Source: Longimicrobiales bacterium (GTDB lineage: Bacteria > Gemmatimonadota > Gemmatimonadetes > Longimicrobiales > Gaopeijiaceae). Taken from it: 16,997 nt of DNA. Made by a program: the position numbers and the translations under genes. The notes beneath the pieces were generated by a model that had not been told where the DNA came from, did not search any database, and worked only from the letters and a program-made list of their open reading frames with translations. Location: assembly GCA_965198065.1 (NCBI GenBank), contig CBDAON010000002.1, positions 1 through 16,997 on the forward strand, given 5' to 3'. Positions within the stretch are counted from its first letter, which is position 1, and each line of letters opens with the position of its first letter. Shown piece by piece: positions 2,547 to 15,977 of this stretch.

Positions 2547-2833
2547 CTAGGCTTCCGATTTCAGCGCCTCGATCGGCTGGATGCCGAGAGCCTGCCGCGC
2601 CGGCACGACGCAGCCGAGCGCGCAGACGGCGAGCATGATGGCCGCGTAGGCCGCGATCAGGGCGGCCTCAGTCACGCTTGGGACACCGCCCAGGACGAGC
2701 GGCGAGAGCGCGGCCACGAGGACAGCGCCTACTCCGATGCCGGCACCGATCTGTATCATCGGGCGACCGAAGATCGCGGGGAGAATGCTCCACGTCAGAG
2801 GGAGAGGAGGCGGGAGAAGAGGCGCGAGATCAT
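2547..2833 (-). pseudogene. ABC/FtsX-type (ADOP-like) permease relic with a large internal deletion and a nonsense codon
   Basis: ATG 2833 gives MISRLFSRLLSL*RG (TGA at 2797-2795, probable Trp). It is joined out of frame to the permease C-terminus ILPAIFGRPMIQIGAGIGVG...VVPARQALGIQPIEALKSEA. Lies directly downstream of padR. Confidence 0.75.
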
Positions 2834-2884
2834 CTCGGCTCCCACGCGTCGACCACACCGGCGCGTGCTCGGTTGCCCATCACC

Positions 2885-3226
2885 CTAACACTCCTGCGGT
2901 GTGGCCGAGAGGGCGCGCGTAATCGCCTGGGCGAGCTGGTTCCAGCTCGCGACCTCCTCGCCCAGCCGGCGGCGCCCGGCGGCCGTGAGCCGGTAGTACT
3001 TGGCGCGCCGGTTGTTCTCGGACGTTCCCCATTCGCTCTTGATTAGCCCCCGGTGCTCGAGGCGATAGAGCGCTGGGTAGAGCGCCCCCTGCTGGATCCG
3101 AAGCGCACCGCCCGAGATCTGCTCGATCCGCAGGAGCACCCCGTACCCGTGGAGTTTCCCGAGCGAGACCGCTTTCAGGATGAGGAGGTCCAGGGTGCCG
3201 GGAAGAATTCCTGCCGGCTCGGTCAT
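2885..3226 (-). CDS. padR: PadR-family transcriptional regulator (acidobacterial subfamily typically paired with ADOP permeases)
   Basis: GTLDLLILK, HGYG, GALYPALYRLE and WGTSENNRRAKYYRLT motifs; AGGAGG RBS. Confidence 0.93.
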   Translation of the reverse strand: MTEPAGILPGTLDLLILKAVSLGKLHGYGVLLRIEQISGGALRIQQGALYPALYRLEHRGLIKSEWGTSENNRRAKYYRLTAAGRRRLGEEVASWNQLAQAITRALSATPQEC

Positions 3227-5071: not shown

Positions 5072-5824
5072 TCAGCGAGGCCTTGCTCGATACGTCTCCT
5101 CGTAGAGCTTGGCCTCCGTGAGAAAAAAGTAGTACGAGTCCACCACGGCCTTGATGAAGCCGCGCCATCCGGCGAGGAACATGCGGCGGAGGAGGTAGAA
5201 CTTGAGGAAGGTGAGCGGGAGCGTGAACAGGAGCCTCGCCCGGTTGAGCCCGCGGCCGTCCCGCTTCCGCTGCACGGCCTTGAGCCGGGAGTATTGGTTC
5301 AGCTTTTCCACCAAGTCGTGCACGGCGTCGTACCCGTAGTGCGAGAACGTGACGGGAAGGCGATCGAGCGGCCCCTTCACATGGACGCGCTCGTGCACCT
5401 CCATCCCCTCGTCGAATCGGGCTCTGTCTCGTCGGTACACGCGCAAGTGGCGAAGTCGCTTCACGCCCAGCATGGGCCGACCCATGAAGGTGTCGTCGCG
5501 CAGGAGGTAGAGGCCGTTTACGTTCCCTCGGTCGATCCTCAGGCGGATCGCCTCCACGGTCCGGGGGGGGAGCACCTCGTCCGAGTCCAGATTGAGAACC
5601 CATTCGCTCCGGCACTGCCGGAGGGCAAAGGCCTTCTGCCGTGCGTACCCGAGCCACTCCTGATGGACGACGCGAGCGCCATGGCGTCGGGCAATCTCGA
5701 GCGTGCCGTCCGAGGAGCCGGAGTCCACGACCAGGATCTCGTCCACGCCGGCCACGGAGCCCAACACCTCGTCCAGGTGGCGCTCCGCGTTGCGTGTGAT
5801 CAGATAGGCGGTAATCGTTGGCAT
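5072..5824 (-). CDS. GT2 glycosyltransferase, LPS beta-1,4-glucosyltransferase (KdtX/WaaE)-like
   Basis: ITAYLITRNAERHL, EILVVDSGSSDGT, WLGYARQK, WVLNLDSDE, VHE and FLKFY..RR.FLAGWRGF. Alternative start ATG 5854. Confidence 0.88.
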   Translation of the reverse strand: MPTITAYLITRNAERHLDEVLGSVAGVDEILVVDSGSSDGTLEIARRHGARVVHQEWLGYARQKAFALRQCRSEWVLNLDSDEVLPPRTVEAIRLRIDRGNVNGLYLLRDDTFMGRPMLGVKRLRHLRVYRRDRARFDEGMEVHERVHVKGPLDRLPVTFSHYGYDAVHDLVEKLNQYSRLKAVQRKRDGRGLNRARLLFTLPLTFLKFYLLRRMFLAGWRGFIKAVVDSYYFFLTEAKLYEETYRARPR

Positions 5825-5852
5825 CCCGATATCCACGGCTTGGGGCCGACTC

Positions 5853-6923
5853 ATGGTGGACCTTGAAAAGACGCCGCTGAACGACGTCCTGATCGTGATG
5901 ATGAGCGCGATCGGGGACGCCGTCCACGTTCTCCCTGTCGTTTCGGCGCTGAAGCGACACTCGCCCGAGTGTCGAATCACGTGGGTGCTCCAGCCCGGCC
6001 CCGCCGGCCTCGTGCACGGTCACCCCCTCGTGGACGAGATCCTCACCTTCCACCGCAGTCGGGGGCTCTCGGCGTTTCGCGACGTCCTTCGGGAGCTCCG
6101 CGAGCGGCGCTTCGACGTCCTGCTCGCGCTCCAGGTCTCGTTCAAGGCGGGCGTGATCGTGGGCTTCTCGGACGTTCCGGTTCGCCTGGGCTTCGACTGG
6201 CGGCGCTCCCGCGATCTGAACTTCCTCTTCACCAACCGGCGGGTCCGGGCACGGCGGGATCAGCACGTTCAGGACCAATACTTCGAGTTCCTCAGGGCGC
6301 TGGGGGTGCCCGATTGGCCGGTCGAGTGGGAGCTCGGGCCGTGGCCCGCGGAGCGGCCGGCGCAGGAGCAGTTTTACTCGCAGCTCAACCGACCCGCGGC
6401 GCCCCTCGTCATCGCGACGAGCAACCCGGAGAAGGACTGGATCCCCGAGCGATGGGCGGATCTGTGCGAGGTGCTCTACGACGACTTCGGGCTGCAGCCG
6501 GTGGTCGTGGGAGGCCGCTCCCCGCGGGAGCTCGAGACCGAGGCGGTGATCCGTCGGCGTGCTCGCGTTCCCGTGATCTCCACGCTGGGAATCCCGCTCC
6601 GGGAGCTTGTGGGGGTGCTGGATGGCGCGGCCGTCGTGGTCTCGCTCGACACGGGCCCGATGCACATGTCCGTGGCGCTCGGGCGGCCCGTCATCGCGCT
6701 CATGGGCTACAACAACCCCAAGCGTGTGGGCCCCTACCGCCGCTTCCGGGACCTGGTGGTGGACGCCTACGGGGATCCGGGCGAGGACTATCGGATCACC
6801 CGAGCGTCACGGAAAGCTCGGATGCCCAGGATCGCCCTGGAGGACGTGGTGACGAAGCTACGGCTATGGCAGGAGAAGTACCGCGTCGAGTACGGTGCGG
6901 GGCTCGGCGGGAAGCGCGCCTGA
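5853..6923 (+). CDS. GT9 ADP-heptose:LPS heptosyltransferase family protein
   Basis: LIVMMSAIGDAVHVLP, ITWV, KDWIPERW and VVSLDTGPMHMSVALGRPVIALMG. Confidence 0.92.
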   Translation: MVDLEKTPLNDVLIVMMSAIGDAVHVLPVVSALKRHSPECRITWVLQPGPAGLVHGHPLVDEILTFHRSRGLSAFRDVLRELRERRFDVLLALQVSFKAGVIVGFSDVPVRLGFDWRRSRDLNFLFTNRRVRARRDQHVQDQYFEFLRALGVPDWPVEWELGPWPAERPAQEQFYSQLNRPAAPLVIATSNPEKDWIPERWADLCEVLYDDFGLQPVVVGGRSPRELETEAVIRRRARVPVISTLGIPLRELVGVLDGAAVVVSLDTGPMHMSVALGRPVIALMGYNNPKRVGPYRRFRDLVVDAYGDPGEDYRITRASRKARMPRIALEDVVTKLRLWQEKYRVEYGAGLGGKRA

Positions 6924-7018
6924 CCCGGGCGTGACGCAACGGAGCCTGCTCGTCGCGGGTCACTCCGCCGTGCCGGACGCATCTGCCGACCCCGGCCCAC
7001 GCGCGCCGATGCGGCGGG

Positions 7019-7306
7019 TCAGCCGGGCCCCTTTGGGGACTCCTTCGATTGATACTGCGGGTCGTTGTACATCTTGAACTGGCGATACACCTTGGGGACC
7101 ACCCGGCCCACCGCGACGTCCGCAAACAAACGCGTGAGCTCCTCCGCCAGGTCGTCCCGCTGCAGCTCCAGGACCTCGAGCCGGCCGCGGCACTGCACGC
7201 GGAAGTCCTCCGTCGCCTCCTCGCGCTCCGTCTGCTCCCGCATATGATAGATCTTGAGCTCGACGATGGAGAGCTTGTCCACGAGCGATCCGACCGTCTC
7301 AGCCAC
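7019..7306 (-). CDS. DUF4254-family protein, C-terminal-half subunit
   Basis: ETVGSLVDKLSIVELKIYHMREQ...C..RL.VL..QR.DL...KVYRQFKMYNDP matches the recalled DUF4254 C-terminal half. Has its own GGAGG/GAAGG RBS and a GTG start overlapping the upstream gene end. Confidence 0.82.
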   Translation of the reverse strand: MAETVGSLVDKLSIVELKIYHMREQTEREEATEDFRVQCRGRLEVLELQRDDLAEELTRLFADVAVGRVVPKVYRQFKMYNDPQYQSKESPKGPG

Positions 7307-7520
7307 TTGAGCCTTCCTCCCGAACCCTTCTGATCGTGCCCGTCACAGCCTCGTCGATCCGCTCGATCAGGTCGTTTCGCCGCTGGTTAAGCTTGTCGAT
7401 CCGGCGCTTCGCGGCGGCCACGCGGCGGTCGTCGTCCACCCTGGCTTCGTCTTCCGCGTGCCAGAGCTCGGTATTCACCGTCGACAGCTCAGCTACGAGC
7501 CCCCCGATCGATGGGTCCAT
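7299..7520 (-). CDS. DUF4254-family protein, N-terminal-half subunit (73 aa)
   Basis: MDPSIGGLVAELSTVNTELWHAEDEAR...KRRIDKLNQRRNDLIERID carries the WH.ED..R and KR.ID..NQ.R.D motifs. GAGG RBS before ATG 7520; it is the 3' end of track ORF 7299..8372. Confidence 0.8.
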   Translation of the reverse strand: MDPSIGGLVAELSTVNTELWHAEDEARVDDDRRVAAAKRRIDKLNQRRNDLIERIDEAVTGTIRRVREEGSSG

Positions 7521-7667
7521 GACCTCGCTCGCGTTCCGGGTGGTGGAAGAGGTGGAATATGCCCGGGGCCGACGGGAGCGTCCAGCGATCGCGATTGTCC
7601 TCGCTGGCGCCGTCGTCACCCCCTTCGGCGGCGCCATCGCTCTTGCCGGTGCTTGGGGCCGGGGGCT

Positions 7668-8534
7668 GTGAGGGTCGCGGTCGTGCTGTCCACGTACAAT
7701 CAGCCCGCCTACCTGCGGCTTGCCCTCGAGGGGTACGCGTGTCAGTCGAGGCGCCCCGATCGGGTCCTCGTAGCCGACGACGGTTCGGCCCCCGAGACGG
7801 GCGAGGCGGCGGCGCGGGTGGCCCGGGAGACCGACCTGCCCATCACCCACCTGTGGCATCCGGACCGGGGCTTCCGAAAGACGACCATCCTTAACCGTGC
7901 GCTCGAGGTGGCGGACGAGGACGTCCTGATCTTCTCCGACGGCGACTGCGTCCCGAGACGGGACTTCGTGGAGGGGCACCTCCGCCTGGGCGGCGAGGGG
8001 CGCTTCGTTTCGGGCGGTTACCTGAAGCTCCCAGGAGAGACGTCCGCGTGCGTGACACCCGAGGCGATCCGGGACGGAAGCGGCTTCCGCCCTGATTGGC
8101 TCCGGGCCCGGGGCTGGCAGCCCGGCCGACGGGCCCTGCGCCTCCTTCGTCCGGGGCCCGCCCCCGCGGTGCTCGACGCGCTCACGCCAACGAAGGCTAC
8201 GTGGAACGGGCACAACGCGTCCACGCTCCGCCGGCGTCTGCTGGACGCGAACGGTTTCGACCTCGACATGGCGTACGGCGGCGAGGATCGGGCGCTGGGG
8301 GAACGCCTGGTGAACGCGGGCCTCAGGGGCGTCCAGGCGCGTCACCGTCTGCCGGCGATCCATCTCGATCACGGGAGACCTTACGTGGACGCGGAGGCGC
8401 TAGCGAGGAACCGGGCGATTCGAAGGCGCATCCGGCGAGAGCACGAGACCCGGTCTCGCCGGGGGCTCGCCGAGCTGCCGCCCGACCCGGACTTCGCGGT
8501 GCGCCCGCTCGCCGGCCCGACGGGGCGAGAGTGA
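7668..8534 (+). CDS. GT2 glycosyltransferase with a galactosyltransferase-like (Glyco_transf_7C) C-terminal motif
   Basis: GTG start VRVAVVLSTYNQP, VLVADDGS, GFRKTTILN, LIFSDGDC, WNGHNAS, NGFD...YGGED and HLDH. Confidence 0.88.
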   Translation: MRVAVVLSTYNQPAYLRLALEGYACQSRRPDRVLVADDGSAPETGEAAARVARETDLPITHLWHPDRGFRKTTILNRALEVADEDVLIFSDGDCVPRRDFVEGHLRLGGEGRFVSGGYLKLPGETSACVTPEAIRDGSGFRPDWLRARGWQPGRRALRLLRPGPAPAVLDALTPTKATWNGHNASTLRRRLLDANGFDLDMAYGGEDRALGERLVNAGLRGVQARHRLPAIHLDHGRPYVDAEALARNRAIRRRIRREHETRSRRGLAELPPDPDFAVRPLAGPTGRE

Positions 8535-8577
8535 GCGCCCGCTCGGCTGCGGCCGCGTCCGCGTTCGGACCGTGCTT

Positions 8578-8606
8578 TAAACCTCAGGCTCCGGACTCTC
8601 GTCTCA
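8578..8606 (+). promoter_or_regulatory. Possible ECF-sigma promoter upstream of the DUF4097 gene
   Basis: TAAACC...CGTCTCA, fitting AAC-N17-CGT. Confidence 0.25.
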
Positions 8607-8641
8607 TGTGCATGGGAAGTCCGTGTTGACTGCCGCGCGGG

Positions 8642-9391
8642 TCGAGCGCATCGAGCCCGACGCTGCCTCTCTGGTGGCCCGGGCTCGAGATCGAACGCGA
8701 AGACCGCGGCCGGCAGGAGATCGTCCCCCGCCGGCTGGAGATCCGGGTGCCCCGAGCGGTCCGCCTCAACGCCGAGAGCGTCTCGGGCGCGGTCGATGCT
8801 GCGAGCCTCAGCGGGAGGGTCGAGGCCAGCTCGGTTTCGGGCCGGGTGGAGGTCCGGGGCGATCTGACTCTGGCGGAGTTCGAGTCGGTGAGCGGAGCCG
8901 TGATCTACACGGGGAGCGCCCCGACCGTGGAACTCCAAAGCGTCTCCGGAGACGTGCGCTTCGAGGGCGAGGCGGAGACGGTTCAGCTCGAGTCCCTGAG
9001 CGGGACGGTCTCGATGAACGGGGTGGGGCGGGACATGGAAGCGAGCACGGTGAGCGGCCGGATCGACCTCGCGTTCGCCACGCCCGTTCGAAGCCTGCAG
9101 CTGGAGTCCGTGGCCGGGGACGTGACCTACGTGGGCGGGCTGGTGGCGGGAGGATCGATCGAAGCGGAGAGCTTTTCCGGTGGCGTGGACCTCACGTTCA
9201 CGAGCAGCACGGACGCGCGCTTCGATCTCGAGGTGTTCTCGGGCAACATCTCCGCCGAGGTTCCCGGCATGCGGGATGAAGTCAGCCGGCGCGGGCGGTT
9301 CACGCCCAACGAGTCCCTCACGTTCGTGACCGGCTCCGGGGCCGGCCGGGTGACTGTCGAGTCGTTCTCGGGGAGCATTCGGATCCGCTGA
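8642..9391 (+). pseudogene. DUF4097-family beta-strand repeat (putative adhesin) protein, 5'-truncated or degenerate
   Basis: RLEIRVPRAVRL followed by many (E/S)SVSG/SFSG repeats to TGA 9391. The frame is closed upstream by TGA 8627-8629; no signal peptide or convincing start. Confidence 0.7.
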
Positions 9392-9455
9392 GTGATCGGC
9401 TGGTGGACCGACGTGGGCACTACGCAGCGTTGCTCGAAGGCTGGGACGCTCGCGC

Positions 9456-10627
9456 TCAGAAGTGGGCGTTCACGAACGGGAGAGTGTTGAAGGGGGCCGG
9501 GTTGTTTCCGGCGCGGTTCAGGAGCCCCACCTGAATCCCGTGTAGCTCGTCCGTCCAGTTCACGATCCCGATCGTGAGCCCGATGGAGCCGTCCAGCAGG
9601 TGGAATCCGGCCACGGATAGGCCCCTGAGCTGGCCCGCGTCCACATATCCCACAGCCGCGCTCACTCCGCTGAGCTCCAAGGTCCGAACCCGATAGCCGG
9701 CCAGGGTGAGCCCGTCGATCCGGCTTCCCCCCTCCGCGCTCCCGAGCGTTGCCTGAACGCCCCTGAGCCGCCCTCCGGCCACCACCCCCGCTCCCGCCAC
9801 GTTGAGCCCCTCGAGGTTCTCGCCCGCCACCACGGCGAGGCCCCGCCCACCCGAACGCCACGCGCGCCGGCGGCGGACACGACGGCGAGGCCGCCCAGCT
9901 GGAGACCTGTCATCCCTCCCTGGGAGACGACCGCAAGGCCCCCGACCTGAATCCCTGCCGCCGTTCCCTGCGTGACCACCGCGAGCAGGCCGGCCTGCGC
10001 TCCCGCCATGTTCCCTCCAGAAACCACGGCGAGCCCTGCGGACTGGATTCCCCGGACCTCGCCCTCGGCCACCACGGCCAGACCCGCTCCCTGGATTCCG
10101 CGGACGCTCCCTTGCGACACGACTGCGAGGCCGCCGGCCTGGATTCCCTCAATCCCTCCGCTGCTGACGAGAGCCAGGCCGGAGAGCCCCAGGCCTCGGA
10201 ACGTCCGCGATGTCACCACCGCGAGCGGAGCCACCCCGACCCCGTCGAGCGGGCCCGCCGAGACGACGGCGATGGCGCCCCCGTACAGGCCGCGAAGCCC
10301 GCCGGACTCGCCCACCACCGCGCCACCGATCCCGATCCCCTCGATGCGCCCGGCCGTGGGAGCGAGCCCCAGCGCTATCCCTCGAACGCGGCCACCCACC
10401 GCCCCCCGGGGCCGCCAGAGCGTGAGGTTCACCCCGTTCACCTCGTCGAGGCTTCGGTCGGACCAGTTGATGCGGATCCCGTTCACGCGGGCCACGTGGC
10501 CGATGGCCAGCCCCGTGCGCCCGACCATGAGCCTCACGCCGGCGCCCTCGTCCGGTGCCGCCTGGGGGAGCGCGGCGCGGGGACAGACCAGGAGACTCGC
10601 CAACGGGAGGGCCAGAAGAGCTCTCAC
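9456..10627 (-). CDS. Secreted glycine-rich ~16-aa repeat protein (LA_2272-like surface repeat), frameshifted near 9845
   Basis: GTG 10627 (GTGA coupling), signal peptide, VNGIRINW...VNGVNLTLW, then tandem GIQxGGLAVVSxGx repeats. After a frame change at G-runs (~9841-9852) it continues to HGIQVGLLN...LPFVNAHF. Confidence 0.75.
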
Positions 10628-11282
10628 GGGATTCTTCTGGCGAGACGGGATGCCTCCCGTCGAAAGACAGTGTCGGCCGGAGTGACGATAGGGAGCCTCT
10701 GGGCTGCCTCCAGGTCCTCTGACGCGGCGGCCCAGTCCTGCTGGGCCACGTGCAAGCGTGCCAGATCTACGCGGTAGACCACCATGTCGGGGGCGAGCTC
10801 CACCGCCTGTCTGAGATGGCTCTCTGCGGTTTCCCAGGTGGCCTCGGCCACGGCGGTTCGACCCGCGAGCAGGCGAGCCAGGATCCGGTACACTCGCGGA
10901 AGCGTCAGGACCTCGAGGTAGAGCCGGCCGAGCGCGTCGTGAGCGCCGGCGTGCGACGGATCCCGCGCTAGGATCTCGTGCGCTCCCCGACGCACGGCCT
11001 CGGCGAGTGACGAGGCCTCGAAGGCGCCCGCGCGGAGCGCCCGCCGACCCTGCGACGCGATGATCCAGTATGGTCCTTCCGTTCGGGCCGGGTCGAGCTC
11101 CGCGGCGCGCCGCGCGTAAGCCTCCGCTCGCTTGTACCATTCTTCGTGCGCGCGGCGGCGCTCGGAGAGGAGCCCGAGGGTCGCGGACGTGCTCCGGGCT
11201 CCCCTGGGCCCGCGCGTCGGATCCGATCCCCAGCAGGAGGGTGGCGATGGCCGAGGACGCCCACAAAAATAGAGATGCGCAT
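10624..11282 (-). pseudogene. Secreted TPR-repeat protein with two frame breaks near its 5' end
   Basis: ATG 11282 plus removal of one G near 11250 gives signal peptide MRISIFVGVLAIATLLLGIGSDARA-Q. A second break near 11200 leads to the TPR frame AEAYARRAAELDP...AHDALGRLY...AESHLRQAVELAPD...YRVDLARL, ending at TGA 10624. Confidence 0.7.
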
Positions 11283-11291
11283 GGGCAGTCC

Positions 11292-12353
11292 ATGCTGAGC
11301 AAGCCGTCGGCCGCTGTCAACGCGGGCGTCGGCCCGGCGGGCGCGCGGGCCCCCCGCGTGTCGGTCCTCCTTCCGGCCCGAAACGCCTCCGCGACGGTGG
11401 ATGAGGCAGTCCGCTCCATCCGGAGTCAAACGCTCGCCGACTGGGAGCTCGTTGCCGTTGACGACGGCTCGACGGACCGGACGGCCGAGCTGTTGGCCCG
11501 CCACACGGCCGAGGACGCCCGCGTGAAAGTTGTGCGGATGGAAGGGGCCGGCATGGTGGCGGCACTCGAGGTGGCGCGGGGGCATGCGCGCGCGCCTCTG
11601 CTCGCGAGGATGGACGCAGACGACCGGTCGGCGCCCGAGCGGCTCGAGGCTCAGCTCTCCTTCCTCGCCGACCATCCCGAGGTGGCGCTCTGCGGAGCCC
11701 ACGTTCGGTACTTCCCCCGAAGAGCGGTCCGGGCCGGTGCCAGGCGCTACGAGGCCTGGCTCAACTCGTTGCGCTGCCCAGAGGATCTCGTTCGAGACCT
11801 CTGGATCGAGTGCCCACTGGCCCATCCGTCGTTCGTCATCCGAGCGGACGCCCTGGAGCGGGTGGGCGGATACCGGGATCCGGGCTGGCCGGAGGACTAC
11901 GACCTCGTCCTCCGGCTTTGGGCAGCCGGCGAGGGGCTGGGCGTCGTTCCGAGGGTTCTACTCGACTGGCGGGAGGCGCCGGATCGTCTCTCACGCCGGG
12001 ATTCGCGGTACTCGCCGGCCGCCTTCCGGCGCGCGAAGCTCCACTTCCTCGCTTCGACGCTCCTCAAGGGGCGGGACGGTCTCGTGATCTGGGGGGCTGG
12101 GCCTGTCGGAAAGGCGATCGCCCGCGAGGCGCTCGTGCAGGGCATCCCGGTGCGGGCGTTCGTGGAGCTCGATCCGCGGAAGGTCGGACAGGAGATCCAC
12201 GGCGCTCCGGTGATCTCGCCCGGGGAGGTCGAGCGCGTCCGGGGCGCCCTCGCCCTCGCGGCCGTGGGTCAGCCGGGGGCGAGGACCGAGATCCGGGGAG
12301 CGCTCAGCCGGCTCGGGTGGATCGAGGTAACGGACTTCGTTGCGGTCGCCTGA
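11292..12353 (+). CDS. GT2 glycosyltransferase with a C-terminal Rossmann-like domain; B3GNTL1/QTGAL-like
   Basis: VSVLLPARNA, ELVAVDDGSTD, LARMDADD, RYEAWLNSL, PEDYDL, then IWGAGPVGK...VRAFVELDPRKVG...EVTDF. Confidence 0.88.
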   Translation: MLSKPSAAVNAGVGPAGARAPRVSVLLPARNASATVDEAVRSIRSQTLADWELVAVDDGSTDRTAELLARHTAEDARVKVVRMEGAGMVAALEVARGHARAPLLARMDADDRSAPERLEAQLSFLADHPEVALCGAHVRYFPRRAVRAGARRYEAWLNSLRCPEDLVRDLWIECPLAHPSFVIRADALERVGGYRDPGWPEDYDLVLRLWAAGEGLGVVPRVLLDWREAPDRLSRRDSRYSPAAFRRAKLHFLASTLLKGRDGLVIWGAGPVGKAIAREALVQGIPVRAFVELDPRKVGQEIHGAPVISPGEVERVRGALALAAVGQPGARTEIRGALSRLGWIEVTDFVAVA

Positions 12354-12387
12354 GGTGGCGGATCGCCTCCGAACCGAGCGCGGACGG

Positions 12388-13074
12388 CTACTCGGCGAGA
12401 TTGAGGCCGCCCTGGGCGAGGATACGGATCACGTCGTCCATGGACTCCGCCACGTGGTCGGCCCGCGAGACGACCGGCTCCCGATAACGGACCTCGGTGA
12501 ACGCAATGAACCCCTCCGCCGCTCCCCGCTCCCTCACCTCGAGGTCGGTCGCGCCGTCTCCCACGATCCAGATCGGAGCGCCGTGCGTCCCCAGGGATCG
12601 GACGACGCCGACCTTTCCGCCCCTGGCCATGGGCGTGTCCAGGTCGAGCCCGGTCACCCGGTGCGTCGGGTCGAACCGGAAGCGGTGAGCGTGGAGCTGG
12701 GTTGGGCGGATGCCGAGGGGGCTCAGGGTCGGAAGGATGAGCTCTTCGAAGCCACCGGAGACCACGTGAATGCGGCCGGAGTTCTCCCGAAAGAAGGGCA
12801 GGTGGCGCTCGACGGACGGGGTCAGCCTCCCCTCGATCTCGGCGGCTACCTGGTCGATCATTTCGCGATCGACCCGGAGGAAATCGAGCCTTCGTCGGAG
12901 TGACTCCTCCGCCGAGATCGCGCCCGCCATGCCCAGGTCCGTCACCTCGCGAAAGGCGGCGAGGCGCGCGGCCGACGCGGGATCCCCGCCCGACTCGAGC
13001 GACCGCGCGAAGAGCTCGTCCAGCCCCTCGACCGAAACGAGGGTGCTGTCGAAGTCGAATACGAGGAGGTACAT
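12388..13074 (-). CDS. serB: HAD-IB phosphatase, phosphoserine phosphatase (SerB)-like
   Basis: HAD motifs FDFDSTLV, VVSGGF, GK and VGDGATD; cap signature EGLDEL...T..GM.G.....ESL.RRL. Confidence 0.82.
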   Translation of the reverse strand: MYLLVFDFDSTLVSVEGLDELFARSLESGGDPASAARLAAFREVTDLGMAGAISAEESLRRRLDFLRVDREMIDQVAAEIEGRLTPSVERHLPFFRENSGRIHVVSGGFEELILPTLSPLGIRPTQLHAHRFRFDPTHRVTGLDLDTPMARGGKVGVVRSLGTHGAPIWIVGDGATDLEVRERGAAEGFIAFTEVRYREPVVSRADHVAESMDDVIRILAQGGLNLAE

Positions 13075-13290
13075 GCGGGTCGGGTCCGGGTCGCGGCGGG
13101 CTGGAAGGTGAACAACTTAAGCTAAACGAGTTACAGACGTCGCCGGGGTGGCAGGGCTCGGCGCCGAGCCGTGGGGCCGCTCGGTGCCCGTTCTGGTCGG
13201 CGGCCTGGCGTAGCGGTACCTGGCACCGGGCGATTGTGTGGGGGAGAGCGCTCTAGTATCGTCGATGTCCCGGGCTGTCCATGCGGACGC

Positions 13291-13317
13291 TGAAACTTTG
13301 GCGGCCGGATGACCGTA
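13291..13317 (+). promoter_or_regulatory. ECF-sigma (SigW-like) promoter upstream of the second permease relic
   Basis: TGAAAC (13291-13296), 17 bp, CGTA (13314-13317), followed by hairpin CAACCG-ggtt-CGGTTG (13318-13333) and ATG 13367. Confidence 0.45.
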
Positions 13318-13366
13318 CAACCGGGTTCGGTTGACCCGCGGCGCCCCGTCCGACCCAAGGGAACCC

Positions 13367-14113
13367 ATGGACCTCTGGAAGGACTGTCGTCCTCACGCTC
13401 GTCCTTCTGTCCGGCGCGGCCTTCATGATGAGGAGCTTCCTCTCCCTCTACACGATGGAGACGGGGATCGAGACGGAGAATCTGGTCACGATGCAGCTGT
13501 ACCTGCCGCTGACCCAGTATCCGGATCAAGGGCCGCGAGCCCAGCTCTACGAGGGCTTCTCGGACCGGCTCGCTGCCGCGCCCGAGCTCGAGACGTACGC
13601 GATCTCGACCGCGCTCCCGCTCGGAGGAGGAGGCTCGCGGCCGGTCGAGATCGACGGGAAGCCGCTTCTCGAGGGTGACGCCTCTTCGGTGACCGCGGTC
13701 GTCATGGTGAGCGATGCCTACTTCGAGACGTTCGGGATCGATCTGATCCAGGGTCGGACGTTCAGCCGAGGCGACGGGACACCGGGCTCGCCCGTCGCCA
13801 TCGTGAATCAGCGCTTTGTGGAGCTTCACCTGGACGGGGGCAACGCGCTGGGGCGATCGGTCCGCTCGCCCTCCGCAAGCATGACGATTCCGTCGGACTC
13901 CTGGCTCACAGTCGTTGGTGTCGTTCCGAACATTCGGCAGACGTCGTTGGATGAGCGGGATCAGAACCCCGTCCTCTACCTCCCGCTCCGGGCCGACCCG
14001 GCTCAGAACGACGGTCGTGACTGTGCGTACGCCCGTCGGCCCTGCGAGCGCGACGCCGGTCGTCCAGAACGCCATGGACGGGGTGAACGCCGACATTCCC
14101 TTCTTTAACGTGA
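13367..14113 (+). pseudogene. ADOP-like ABC permease relic: start fused to the second periplasmic (MacB-like) domain, 3'-truncated
   Basis: ATG 13367 MDLWKD is joined out of frame to VVLTLVLLSGAAFMMRSFLSLY...VSDAYFETFGIDLIQGRTFS...VAIVNQRF...TVVGVV...VLYLP. Frameshift near 14003 to TVRTPVGPAS...NADIPFFNV; the terminal TM domain is absent. Confidence 0.8.
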
Positions 14114-14214
14114 GCGGCCGCGTGTGTATTTACGGCTCGGCGGGCCGGGCGCGTAAATCCGGTGGAGGCGCTCAGGATCGAATAGCCACGAGTCGCGGGC
14201 GCGATCCGGCTCCC

Positions 14215-14243
14215 TTGGCCCGCCGGGCGCCAGCGGGTACAAT
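14215..14243 (+). promoter_or_regulatory. Sigma70 promoter of ilvD, leaderless geometry
   Basis: TTGGCC (14215-14220), 17 bp, TACAAT (14238-14243), 6 nt, ATG 14250; no SD. Confidence 0.6.
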
Positions 14244-14249
14244 CCCGCC

Positions 14250-15977
14250 ATGCCGAACCGGACCACACCCGTGGCGCCGAAGCCGAAGGGAGCGGCTCTC
14301 CCCCTCAAGCTGAACCGCACAAGCGCCCGAATCACGGAGCCCAAGTCCCAGGGGGCCTCCCAGGCCATGCTCTACGGGACTGGGCTCACTCCAGACGACC
14401 TCCGAAAGCCACAGGTGGGAATAGCGAGCATGTGGTGGGAGGGGAACACCTGCAACATGCACCTCAACGATCTGGCGGCCCGCGTTCGCGAGGGTGTCGT
14501 GGCGGCGGGCATGGTCGGGATGCGCTTCAACACGGTCGGTGTGTCGGACGGGATCTCGATGGGGACCGAGGGGATGAGCTACTCGCTCCAGTCGAGGGAC
14601 CTGATCGCCGACTCGATCGAGACGGTCATGCGGGCGCAGTGGTACGACGCGAACATCTCGCTTCCCGGTTGCGACAAGAACATGCCCGGATGCGTGATGG
14701 CGATGGCTCGGGTGAACCGACCCTCGATCATGATCTACGGCGGGACGATCCGCGCAGGCCGCAGCCAGGGCCGCGTGCTCGACATCATATCGGCGTTCCA
14801 GAGCTACGGGGAGTTCATCGCGAACCGGATCGACGAGGAGGGCCGGGCCGACATCGTCCGGCACGCGTGCCCCGGAGCAGGGGCGTGCGGGGGGATGTAC
14901 ACGGCAAACACGATCGCGTCCGCGATCGAGGCGCTTGGCATGTCGCTCCCGTACAGCTCCTCCACCCCGGCCGACGACCCCGAGAAGGTCGAGGAGTGCA
15001 TCGCCGCGGGGTCGGCCATCCTGAACTTGCTCGAGCTCGACCTGAAACCGCGGGACATCATGACACGCGAGGCGTTCGAGAACGCGATCACCCTCGTCAT
15101 GGCCCTCGGGGGATCGACGAACGCAGTCCTCCACCTGATCGCGATGGCGCGGGGGGTGGACGTTCCCCTCGAGCTGGACGACTTCCAGGACGTGAGCGAC
15201 CGCGTCCCGTTCCTCGCCGACCTGAAGCCGTCAGGGAAGTACGTCATGGAAGACCTGCACCGGGTGGGGGGCACCCCAGCGGTCCTTCGCTACCTGCTCC
15301 ACGAGGGGTTGATCCACGGCGACTGCCTGACGGTCACCGGCCGGACGATGGCCGAGAACCTGGACGACGTGCCAGGTCTGGCCGACGGCCAGGACGTGAT
15401 CCGTTCGGTGAGGAACCCGCTCAAGGCCACGGGTCACATCCGAATCCTCCGCGGCAACCTGGCCCCGGGGGGAGCCGTCGCGAAGATCACGGGAAAGGAG
15501 GGCGTACAGTTCCGCGGCCCGGCCCGTGTCTATGACTCCGAGGAGGAGATGCTCCAGGCACTCGAGCGCTCGGAGATCCAGCGTGGCGATGTCGTCGTGA
15601 TCCGCTACGAGGGACCGAAGGGCGGGCCCGGCATGCCCGAGATGCTGACCCCGACGTCGGCCATCGTGGGGGCGGGGCTCGGGGGACATGTGGCGCTCCT
15701 CACGGACGGGCGGTTCTCCGGAGGGTCCCACGGGTTCCTGATCGGCCACATCGTTCCCGAGGCGCAGGAGGGAGGACCCATCGCGCTTCTTGAGGACGGC
15801 GATGTCGTCACGATCGACGCGGTCGAGAACACGCTCGCGGTCGAGCTCAAGGACGAGGAGCTGAACCGTCGGCGGCAGGCCTGGTCGATGCCTGCGTACA
15901 AGGCCGACCGGGGCACGCTCCTCCGGTACATCCGCACCGTGAAGGACGCCTCGTACGGCTGCGTCACAGACGAGTAG
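14250..15977 (+). CDS. ilvD: Dihydroxy-acid dehydratase
   Basis: [60 protein letters not shown] and [11 protein letters not shown]; three Fe-S cysteines. Confidence 0.97.

Follow-up and report, generated by a model that had tools for sequence, protein, structure and literature searches.

Do bacteria attach a sugar to queuosine (Q) in their tRNA? This question is raised by a gene at positions 11292..12353 (+) of a 16,997-nt stretch of DNA (hereafter the window), which is the entire contig C2 of a 3.05-Mb genome that is 88% complete. The initial annotation suggested that the gene encodes a homolog of the eukaryotic queuosine-tRNA galactosyltransferase QTGAL (B3GNTL1), whose discovery is reportedly due to Zhao et al. 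in Cell in 2023. With UDP-galactose as donor, QTGAL galactosylates Q34 of tRNA-Tyr, its target in animals, at the homoallylic hydroxyl; the SN2 reaction yields a beta-glycoside (bioRxiv 10.64898/2026.06.28.735034). Modified forms of Q are described as galQ and manQ in vertebrates and as gluQ in bacteria (PMC10690763, PMC12710937), and GluQ-RS (YadB) provides the only Q hypermodification described for bacteria (PMC10690763, PMC12710937, PMC13602947). In the first 300,000 characters of a 2026 compendium of bacterial RNA modifications (PMC13602947), galQ, manQ and the term 'glycosyl' are absent. We found no report of a bacterial QTGAL or of bacterial glyco-Q in the literature that was searched; the QTGAL discovery paper, which could mention bacterial homologs, lies outside this search.

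If bacteria do make glyco-Q, the known bacterial tRNA modifications would gain a new member, prokaryotic RNA glycosylation one of its rare examples, and a family of thousands of proteins that are now labelled 'cell wall glycosyltransferase' a function. The activity would furthermore indicate where QTGAL came from, and the small soluble protein could serve as a model of an enzyme for which our searches found no solved structure.

The gene and its surroundings

The frame at 11292..12353 (+) is open and encodes a soluble two-domain GT2 protein of 353 aa from a QTGAL-like bacterial family, as judged from the reading frame, Pfam and an AlphaFold2 model. A protein search found a database protein of equal length that is 98% identical. 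An alternative start, the in-frame ATG at 11247, is preceded by a better ribosome-binding site than the one at 11292. As one base is missing at 11270, i.e. between both candidates, in two related strains, the start at 11292 is favoured. The region 8400-14400 is reproduced by contigs of two studies (0 and 2 differences), and the frameshifts in the neighbouring genes are thus not artefacts of assembly. Two related strains differ by indels at 9779, 9841, 10326, 10794, 13319, 13343 and 14000, and none is listed within 11292-12353; a comparison of the gene with five relatives gives dN/dS values of 0.16-0.38, with dS near saturation. We conclude that the gene is genuine and intact and that purifying selection acts on it, which agrees with its earlier description as intact amid decayed neighbours. 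The HAD phosphatase gene downstream (12388-13074) is intact too.

Upstream lies an LPS-type cluster (5075-8534, mixed strands; Pfam/NCBIfam) that consists of a GT2 gene (-), a GT9 heptosyltransferase gene (+), a DUF4254 gene that probably has a second, short copy (-) and another GT2 gene (+). The cluster ends about 2.8 kb upstream of the gene, which is therefore located outside it, as the initial annotation had stated. Neither tgt/que genes, whose absence had likewise been noted, nor tRNA genes were found within the 16,997 nt.

Several genes of the contig show decay. A Gly/Val/Ala-rich repeat protein without Pfam match (9456-10600, -) is frameshifted near 9841, where two related strains differ by 2 bases, so that this break is strain-specific. 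A MacB-type permease remnant (13300-14250, +) is frameshifted as well. The window also contains an RHH + PIN (VapBC-type) toxin-antitoxin pair (1874-2541, +) and a PadR gene adjoining a permease-like fragment (2547-3226, -). Elsewhere in the genome, 18 tRNA genes are arrayed in 2.4 kb (G000:C4:1710874-1713237).

Domain architecture and motifs

The larger part of the protein is a GT-A catalytic domain (approximately residues 21-258; 11352..12065, +). PF00535 (GT2) matches residues 24-191 with an E-value of 8e-28 and 97.9 bits, compared to a cut-off of 23.3. In the AlphaFold2 model (mean pLDDT 95.7), the GT-A domain precedes a small alpha/beta domain, and the best matches in a structure search are GT-A GT2 enzymes (Z 22-25) that cover the GT-A part; for 2z86_A, the rmsd is 3.8 over 234 residues (Z up to 25.4). 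With PF00535 above its cut-off, a GT-A fold and the DxD and xED motifs, the protein is a member of GT2/GT-A. Sequence and structure searches of the PDB returned generic GT2 matches only, and no solved QTGAL structure was found there; as these searches barely cover the C-terminal domain, this domain may still have a homologous fold in the PDB.

Metal and nucleotide-sugar binding by a DxD motif is established chemistry of GT-A enzymes. This motif, here D108-A-D110-D111 (11613..11624, +), is 100% conserved in the rows of the family, of QTGAL and of the outgroup. A YxxWxN helix (residues 153-158; 11748..11765, +) is common to the family and QTGAL, and its conservation together with an insert-only profile match suggests an acceptor-side element. 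W156 is found in 100% of the QTGAL rows, 100% of the family rows and 11% of the generic GT2 rows, and N158 in 100%, 94% and 0%, respectively. The PED motif (P200-E201-D202; 11889..11897, +) contains the invariant D202, the putative catalytic base, and P200 occurs in 100% of the QTGAL, 91% of the family and 0% of the outgroup rows. Thus, the family shares W156, N158 and P200 with QTGAL, whereas 28 generic GT2 domains almost entirely lack them.

Residues 259-353 (12066..12350, +) form a C-terminal Rossmann-like domain that is shared with QTGAL (domain-only profile match, E 2.7e-14) and is predicted to help bind tRNA. Database matches of this domain are weak and of Rossmann type only (CoA_binding E 0.0085, NeuD/PglB 2e-5, Rex 0.0015), the weak CoA-binding-type Pfam match spanning residues 265-309. 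Four basic positions outside the GT2 core align with QTGAL (K249, K274, R278 and K297); three of these, K274, R278 and K297, are conserved and align with the conserved R264, R268 and K288 of a named QTGAL. Across the family, the median net charge is +2, which is not strongly basic. The highest 19-residue hydropathy is 1.2, and the protein thus has no membrane helix. The earlier description of a GT2 fold with an insertion and an extra C-terminal domain holds, and every motif quoted for the bacterial protein is present.

Relationship to eukaryotic QTGAL

QTGAL sequences were sourced by scanning metagenomes with one short motif from the initial annotation, which resulted in 52 loci. About half of these match the bacterial profile, and several have intron-like breaks. 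With one full-length metagenomic product as query, 1096 proteins were retrieved, and among the best 120, the names queuosine-tRNA galactosyltransferase and B3GNTL1 are frequent. The QTGAL profile consists of 31 rows, i.e. 25 with database names or organism labels and six metagenomic ones, and the family profile was built from 82 bacterial representatives.

The 353-aa protein and a QTGAL are about 24% identical in a pairwise comparison (E 6e-13). When the two profiles are compared, the match extends over 327 columns to the C-terminus (probability 100, E 3.4e-49), and the N-terminal part (E 6e-33), the middle (1e-13), the insert (6.5e-8) and the C-terminal part (2.7e-14) also match separately. 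In the AlphaFold2 models of the bacterial protein and of QTGAL, the order of elements is nearly equal. Searching the gene's own genome with the QTGAL HMM ranks the 353-aa ORF first (75 bits, positions 8-294); the next match has 46 bits and ends at position 134, and no match other than the 353-aa ORF extends further than this. The homology to QTGAL is thus full-length and reciprocal and goes beyond generic GT2 motifs, and the motifs of human B3GNTL1 that the initial annotation had listed are all found, in the same order, in the human row Q67FW5 of the supplementary table of PMC7185993. In 121 Myxococcota genomes, 11 of the 12 matches of the QTGAL HMM at E<=1e-20 are family loci, a threshold that only 11 of the 45 carriers pass. 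Nearly all family rows (411 of 422) extend to QTGAL-HMM position >=265. When the GT-A part alone is scored against the QTGAL HMM, generic GT2s reach up to 87 bits, compared to 75 bits for the 353-aa protein and a family median of 92 (range 25-135).

Both the family and QTGAL have about 340-350 aa, a GT-A domain with a C-terminal Rossmann-like domain, the same order of secondary structures and no membrane helix, and they share the DxD, YxxWxN, PED, IWxAG and terminal EGxD[FY] motifs. They differ in that the family has RMDADD instead of F[LF]DxDD, EDYDL instead of EDLxF and E[CS]P..HP instead of the TSxGP..MP of animals; in addition, the bacterial family lacks an insert of about 10 residues in the C-terminal domain of QTGAL. 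In the QTGAL rows from protists and green algae, an E-C/E-N motif is found that resembles the bacterial E[CS]P, whereas animals have TSxG. While the family is bacterial, the GT2-B3GntL-1 group (CAZy GT2) is eukaryotic: in the searched tables of PMC7185993, it includes 683 sequences, none of them from bacteria or archaea, and the sole cyanobacterial sequence that bears the family label there, a TPR protein of 1181 aa, belongs to a different group. A separate observation concerns a high-GC metagenomic QTGAL-like protein (L056 / P0131), which is the first branch among the eukaryotic rows; where animals have TSxG, it shows an FVE motif of bacterial type.

A GT2 phylogeny had been named as a check in the initial annotation. 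In a tree of the GT-A domain with 76 rows, the family and QTGAL are joined as sister groups (support 72/83, bootstrap not settled), and in a tree with 32 rows they are joined with a support of 92/95, with QTGAL within the family. However, the alternative that groups QTGAL with five generic GT2s is not rejected by an AU test (32 rows, simpler model; p-AU 0.29). The stem of QTGAL is long (1.69), the trees omit the C-terminal domain, and their outgroup is without other GT2-plus-Rossmann architectures. The tree support for the kinship is moderate. Given the support of 72/83, the p-AU of 0.29 and the generic GT2s of up to 87 bits, the kinship rests on the common architecture and the signature residues more than on the tree. 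We conclude that this family is very probably the closest bacterial counterpart of QTGAL.

Size and distribution of the family

The protein search resulted in 7355 matches among 7997 scored candidates, many of which are generic GT2s. The best 120 of the 7355 matches are 56-98% identical and mostly near full length, and the nearest labelled relatives are mostly from Gemmatimonadota. After clustering at 50%, 125 of the best 150 representatives have a length of 315-365 aa. We assigned to each genome sample the phylum given for its centre locus. The family profile detected the gene in 26 of 121 genomes of Gemmatimonadota (one match partial), 45 of 121 of Myxococcota, 24 of 151 of Armatimonadota and 9 of 151 of Chloroflexota; in Actinomycetota, it was found in 1 of the 251 genomes of the phylum sample and in 3 of 201 genomes of one class, all three with tgt, which is too rare for this phylum to serve as a test group with patchy tgt. 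In Bacteroidota, the gene is present on two large plasmids. The cultured carriers include Aureibacter tunicatorum and Persicobacter. All samples have one family copy per genome, and the identity to the 353-aa protein across phyla is 36-68%. The family is large, bacterial, unnamed and single-copy. To our knowledge, Chloroflexota and Actinomycetota lack LPS, and the family thus occurs in LPS-free phyla. QTGAL is patchily distributed in animals as well (PMC11705514, PMC12313893).

The protein Atlas contains bacterial clusters only and no QTGAL cluster, and viral contigs yielded generic GT2s only. Five matches are longer fused forms (uvrA read-through, HEAT repeats, PilZ and one unassigned), none with a Q enzyme, which is weak evidence. 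Single cases of fusion to a 2-thiouracil desulfurase (PF04463), a methyltransferase, a CYTH domain and a 400-aa region without Pfam match (P0284, P0281, P0295 and P0300) may be read-throughs.

Comparison with other bacterial enzymes

In NCBIfam, the protein has 24 sub-threshold matches with EpsE at the top; the equivalog scores for EpsE (NF053739) and TuaG (NF047683), 91.5 and 84.4 bits, do not reach the cut-offs of 450 and 400 bits, respectively. Soluble GT2s of the EpsE/TuaG/SpsA type (PDB 1h7l, 2z86) share the GT-A fold, the DxD motif and the xED catalytic helix with the family, but they lack the YxxWxN helix and P200, and their solved structures superpose on little of the family's C-terminal domain. 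Unlike the polysaccharide GT2s EpsE and TuaG, the family gene lies outside the glycan cluster of the window and is usually not part of a glycan locus. Furthermore, the family forms one clade that is separate from EpsE-like GT2s (support 99/93).

GluQ-RS resembles the proposed enzyme in that it decorates a cyclopentene hydroxyl of Q (PMC10690763, PMC12710937, PMC13602947), whereas its fold is unrelated and its chemistry is an aminoacylation. In the gene's own genome and in four Chloroflexota carriers, no match to GluQ-RS above the TIGR03838 cut-off was found.

Queuosine genes in carrier genomes

The gene's own genome contains tgt, queA and queG, so that on genetic grounds the host can place queuosine in tRNA; queC had no match in this genome. 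A second, partial queA match is located at C4:1561649-1562236. All 95 carrier genomes tested contain tgt (18 relatives and 13 Armatimonadota carriers are outside this count), and frequent occurrence in genomes without tgt, which the initial annotation had named as speaking against a Q-related function, is thus not what we observe. Taken alone, this co-occurrence is weak because tgt is near-universal in the main carrier phyla. The same applies to queA, which in Gemmatimonadota (120 of 121 genomes) does not discriminate carriers.

Chloroflexota are the only informative sample, with queA in 113 of 151 genomes overall. Here, the gene is anti-associated with queA (2 of 9 carriers compared to 111 of 142 other genomes, p 0.001), i.e. 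seven of the nine carriers are without queA, which by itself would speak against a link to Q. Among the 38 queA-negative genomes, the gene is present in 7 of 21 with tgt and in 0 of 17 without tgt (one-sided Fisher p 0.009, uncorrected for kinship); the other 31, 14 with and 17 without tgt, do not contain it. As five of the seven queA-negative carriers have one neighbourhood in common, this test rests on approximately two lineages.

All seven queA-negative carriers have a full tgt with Gly at the position of Val233 (GGSLG) and Leu for Cys158 in its pocket (numbering of the Zymomonas enzyme). The GGSLG loop partially matches GG[LS][AS]G, the signature of queuine-salvage TGTs (PMC11570991), and these carriers could thus still carry Q. 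At several Chloroflexota tgt loci (L186-L190, L197, L198, L244, L247-L249), the TGT has an insert of about 20 residues after the DSGG motif. Judging from its pocket residues (Leu for Cys158, GGSLG), this DSGG-insert TGT of queA-negative Chloroflexota is likely a queuine-inserting enzyme.

Additional copies of Q genes were also observed. Several Chloroflexota have a second, divergent TGT paralog with a GGWPLD loop that scores about 300 bits, just below the Tgt cut-off (L191-L193, L199, L256-L258), and second, weaker TGT matches occur in Latescibacterota, Myxococcota and Armatimonadota. Many Myxococcota genomes contain two full-length tgt genes, and approximately 17 Chloroflexota have a second, weaker queA-like gene.

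Gene neighbourhoods

We looked for tgt, queA and queG in the neighbourhoods of the gene, i.e. 155+24 loci of about 4-17 kb each (some duplicates), and found none of them in these 179 loci. The neighbours vary by lineage and are of housekeeping type (gyrA, a uvrA-like ATPase, an M16 peptidase, asnS), with unrelated genes in other lineages. For instance, gyrA adjoins the gene in 43 of 80 loci, mostly from Gemmatimonadota, and asnS in 6 of 30 Myxococcota loci, which is anecdotal, as are single neighbours such as Elp3, MnmE, an IPP-transferase (MiaA-type) and a class I W/Y synthetase. Nearby tRNA genes are scarce and of several kinds (2 of 139 loci in one set; 6 of 24 in another, with Asn x2, Lys x3, Glu x1) and do not count as support. 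Glycan-type genes are found in Persicobacter, where the gene is near wza/wzc, in 3 of the 24 Armatimonadota loci (GT2, GT9 and UDP-sugar dehydrogenase nearby) and in 11 of 80 loci, where a Kdo transferase is encoded at a distance of about 5 kb. Only 3 of 155 loci contain a second, separate GT2-like gene; four further matches are fragments of the family gene. Usually the gene stands alone, with glycan-type neighbours in a minority of loci, and its context is neutral on a Q-tRNA function, i.e. it neither supports nor refutes it.

Proposed function and alternatives

We slightly favour the interpretation that the gene product is a full-length bacterial counterpart of QTGAL that glycosylates queuosine in tRNA. 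What we count in favour is the end-to-end homology to QTGAL, the signature residues, the co-occurrence with tgt, the salvage-type TGT, the solitary single copy and the presence in LPS-free phyla. Against it count the 24% identity, that tgt is common anyway, the absence of que neighbours, the glycan genes near a few copies and the modest charge. For the family, we infer acceptor and donor only from the shared YxxWxN helix, PED loop and C-terminal domain. Acceptors of GT2 enzymes change readily. Even the eukaryotic members may not all make galQ, since C. elegans has a QTGAL gene and no galQ was seen on its pre-tRNA-Tyr (PMC12313893).

A different soluble acceptor is the alternative that we take most seriously, even if we consider it unlikely: the family would be a relative of QTGAL that acts on a protein, on a cofactor or a small metabolite, or on RNA or a modified nucleoside other than Q, and the specificity for Q would have arisen on the long eukaryotic stem. 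The length of this stem and the low identity would fit, as would the lack of que genes beside the gene in 179 loci, the patchy family despite near-universal Q genes and the resemblance of the C-terminal domain to generic Rossmann modules (NeuD/PglD_N, CoA-binding); in addition, the rare fusions (methyltransferase, CYTH, 2-thiouracil desulfurase) indicate no single pathway. However, the putative acceptor-side residues W156, N158 and P200 and the four basic positions are kept in both bacteria and QTGAL, and no carrier without tgt was observed, neither among the 95 tested nor among the 17 tgt-less Chloroflexota. The gene product could also be an orphan glycosyltransferase of the cell envelope that, as most bacterial GT2s do, acts on LPS, exopolysaccharide or a lipid-linked glycan. 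We regard this as improbable: the protein has no membrane helix, is encoded by a single-copy gene that is well conserved across phyla (36-68%), also in LPS-free ones, rarely has a second GT2-like gene nearby (3 of 155 loci) and branches apart from EpsE-like GT2s (99/93). In favour of an envelope enzyme, its best curated matches are EpsE and TuaG, far under their cut-offs, its closest solved structures are polysaccharide GT2s, and glycan genes are found near some copies (wza/wzc, a GT9, a GT2, a UDP-sugar dehydrogenase or a Kdo transferase); in the window, the distance to the upstream LPS-type cluster is 2.8 kb.

The remaining alternative retains Q and moves the reaction off the tRNA, so that free queuosine, queuine or a Q-nucleotide would be glycosylated for storage or salvage. 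It accounts for the kept signature residues, the co-occurrence with tgt and the fact that queA-negative genomes with a salvage-type TGT contain the gene. Nevertheless, an enzyme with intact tRNA as its substrate has this C-terminal domain and its basic residues in common with the family, and the scanned neighbours include no recognisable salvage transporter or hydrolase; we therefore consider this explanation very improbable.

According to the favoured interpretation of Q-tRNA glycosylation, the enzyme would transfer galactose or another hexose from a nucleotide-sugar to queuosine at position 34 of a tRNA with a GUN anticodon. By analogy with GT-A chemistry and QTGAL, the DxD motif would hold the UDP-sugar together with a divalent metal, a hydroxyl of the cyclopentene-diol of Q would lose its proton to D202 of the PED motif, and SN2 inversion would result in a beta-glycoside. 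As the DxD motif and the PED aspartate are kept, the bacterial protein would use the same inverting chemistry as QTGAL. From their conservation, the YxxWxN helix may shape the acceptor pocket, and the basic C-terminal domain may help to hold the anticodon arm. It appears to us an evenly balanced proposition that at least six bacterial phyla glycosylate tRNA Q with this family, which would mean that sugar-Q is not a eukaryotic invention, that QTGAL descended from or is sister to a bacterial enzyme and that queuine-salvaging bacteria keep the sugar step. The protonated nucleoside of hexosyl-Q has an m/z of 572.22 (PMC11705514).
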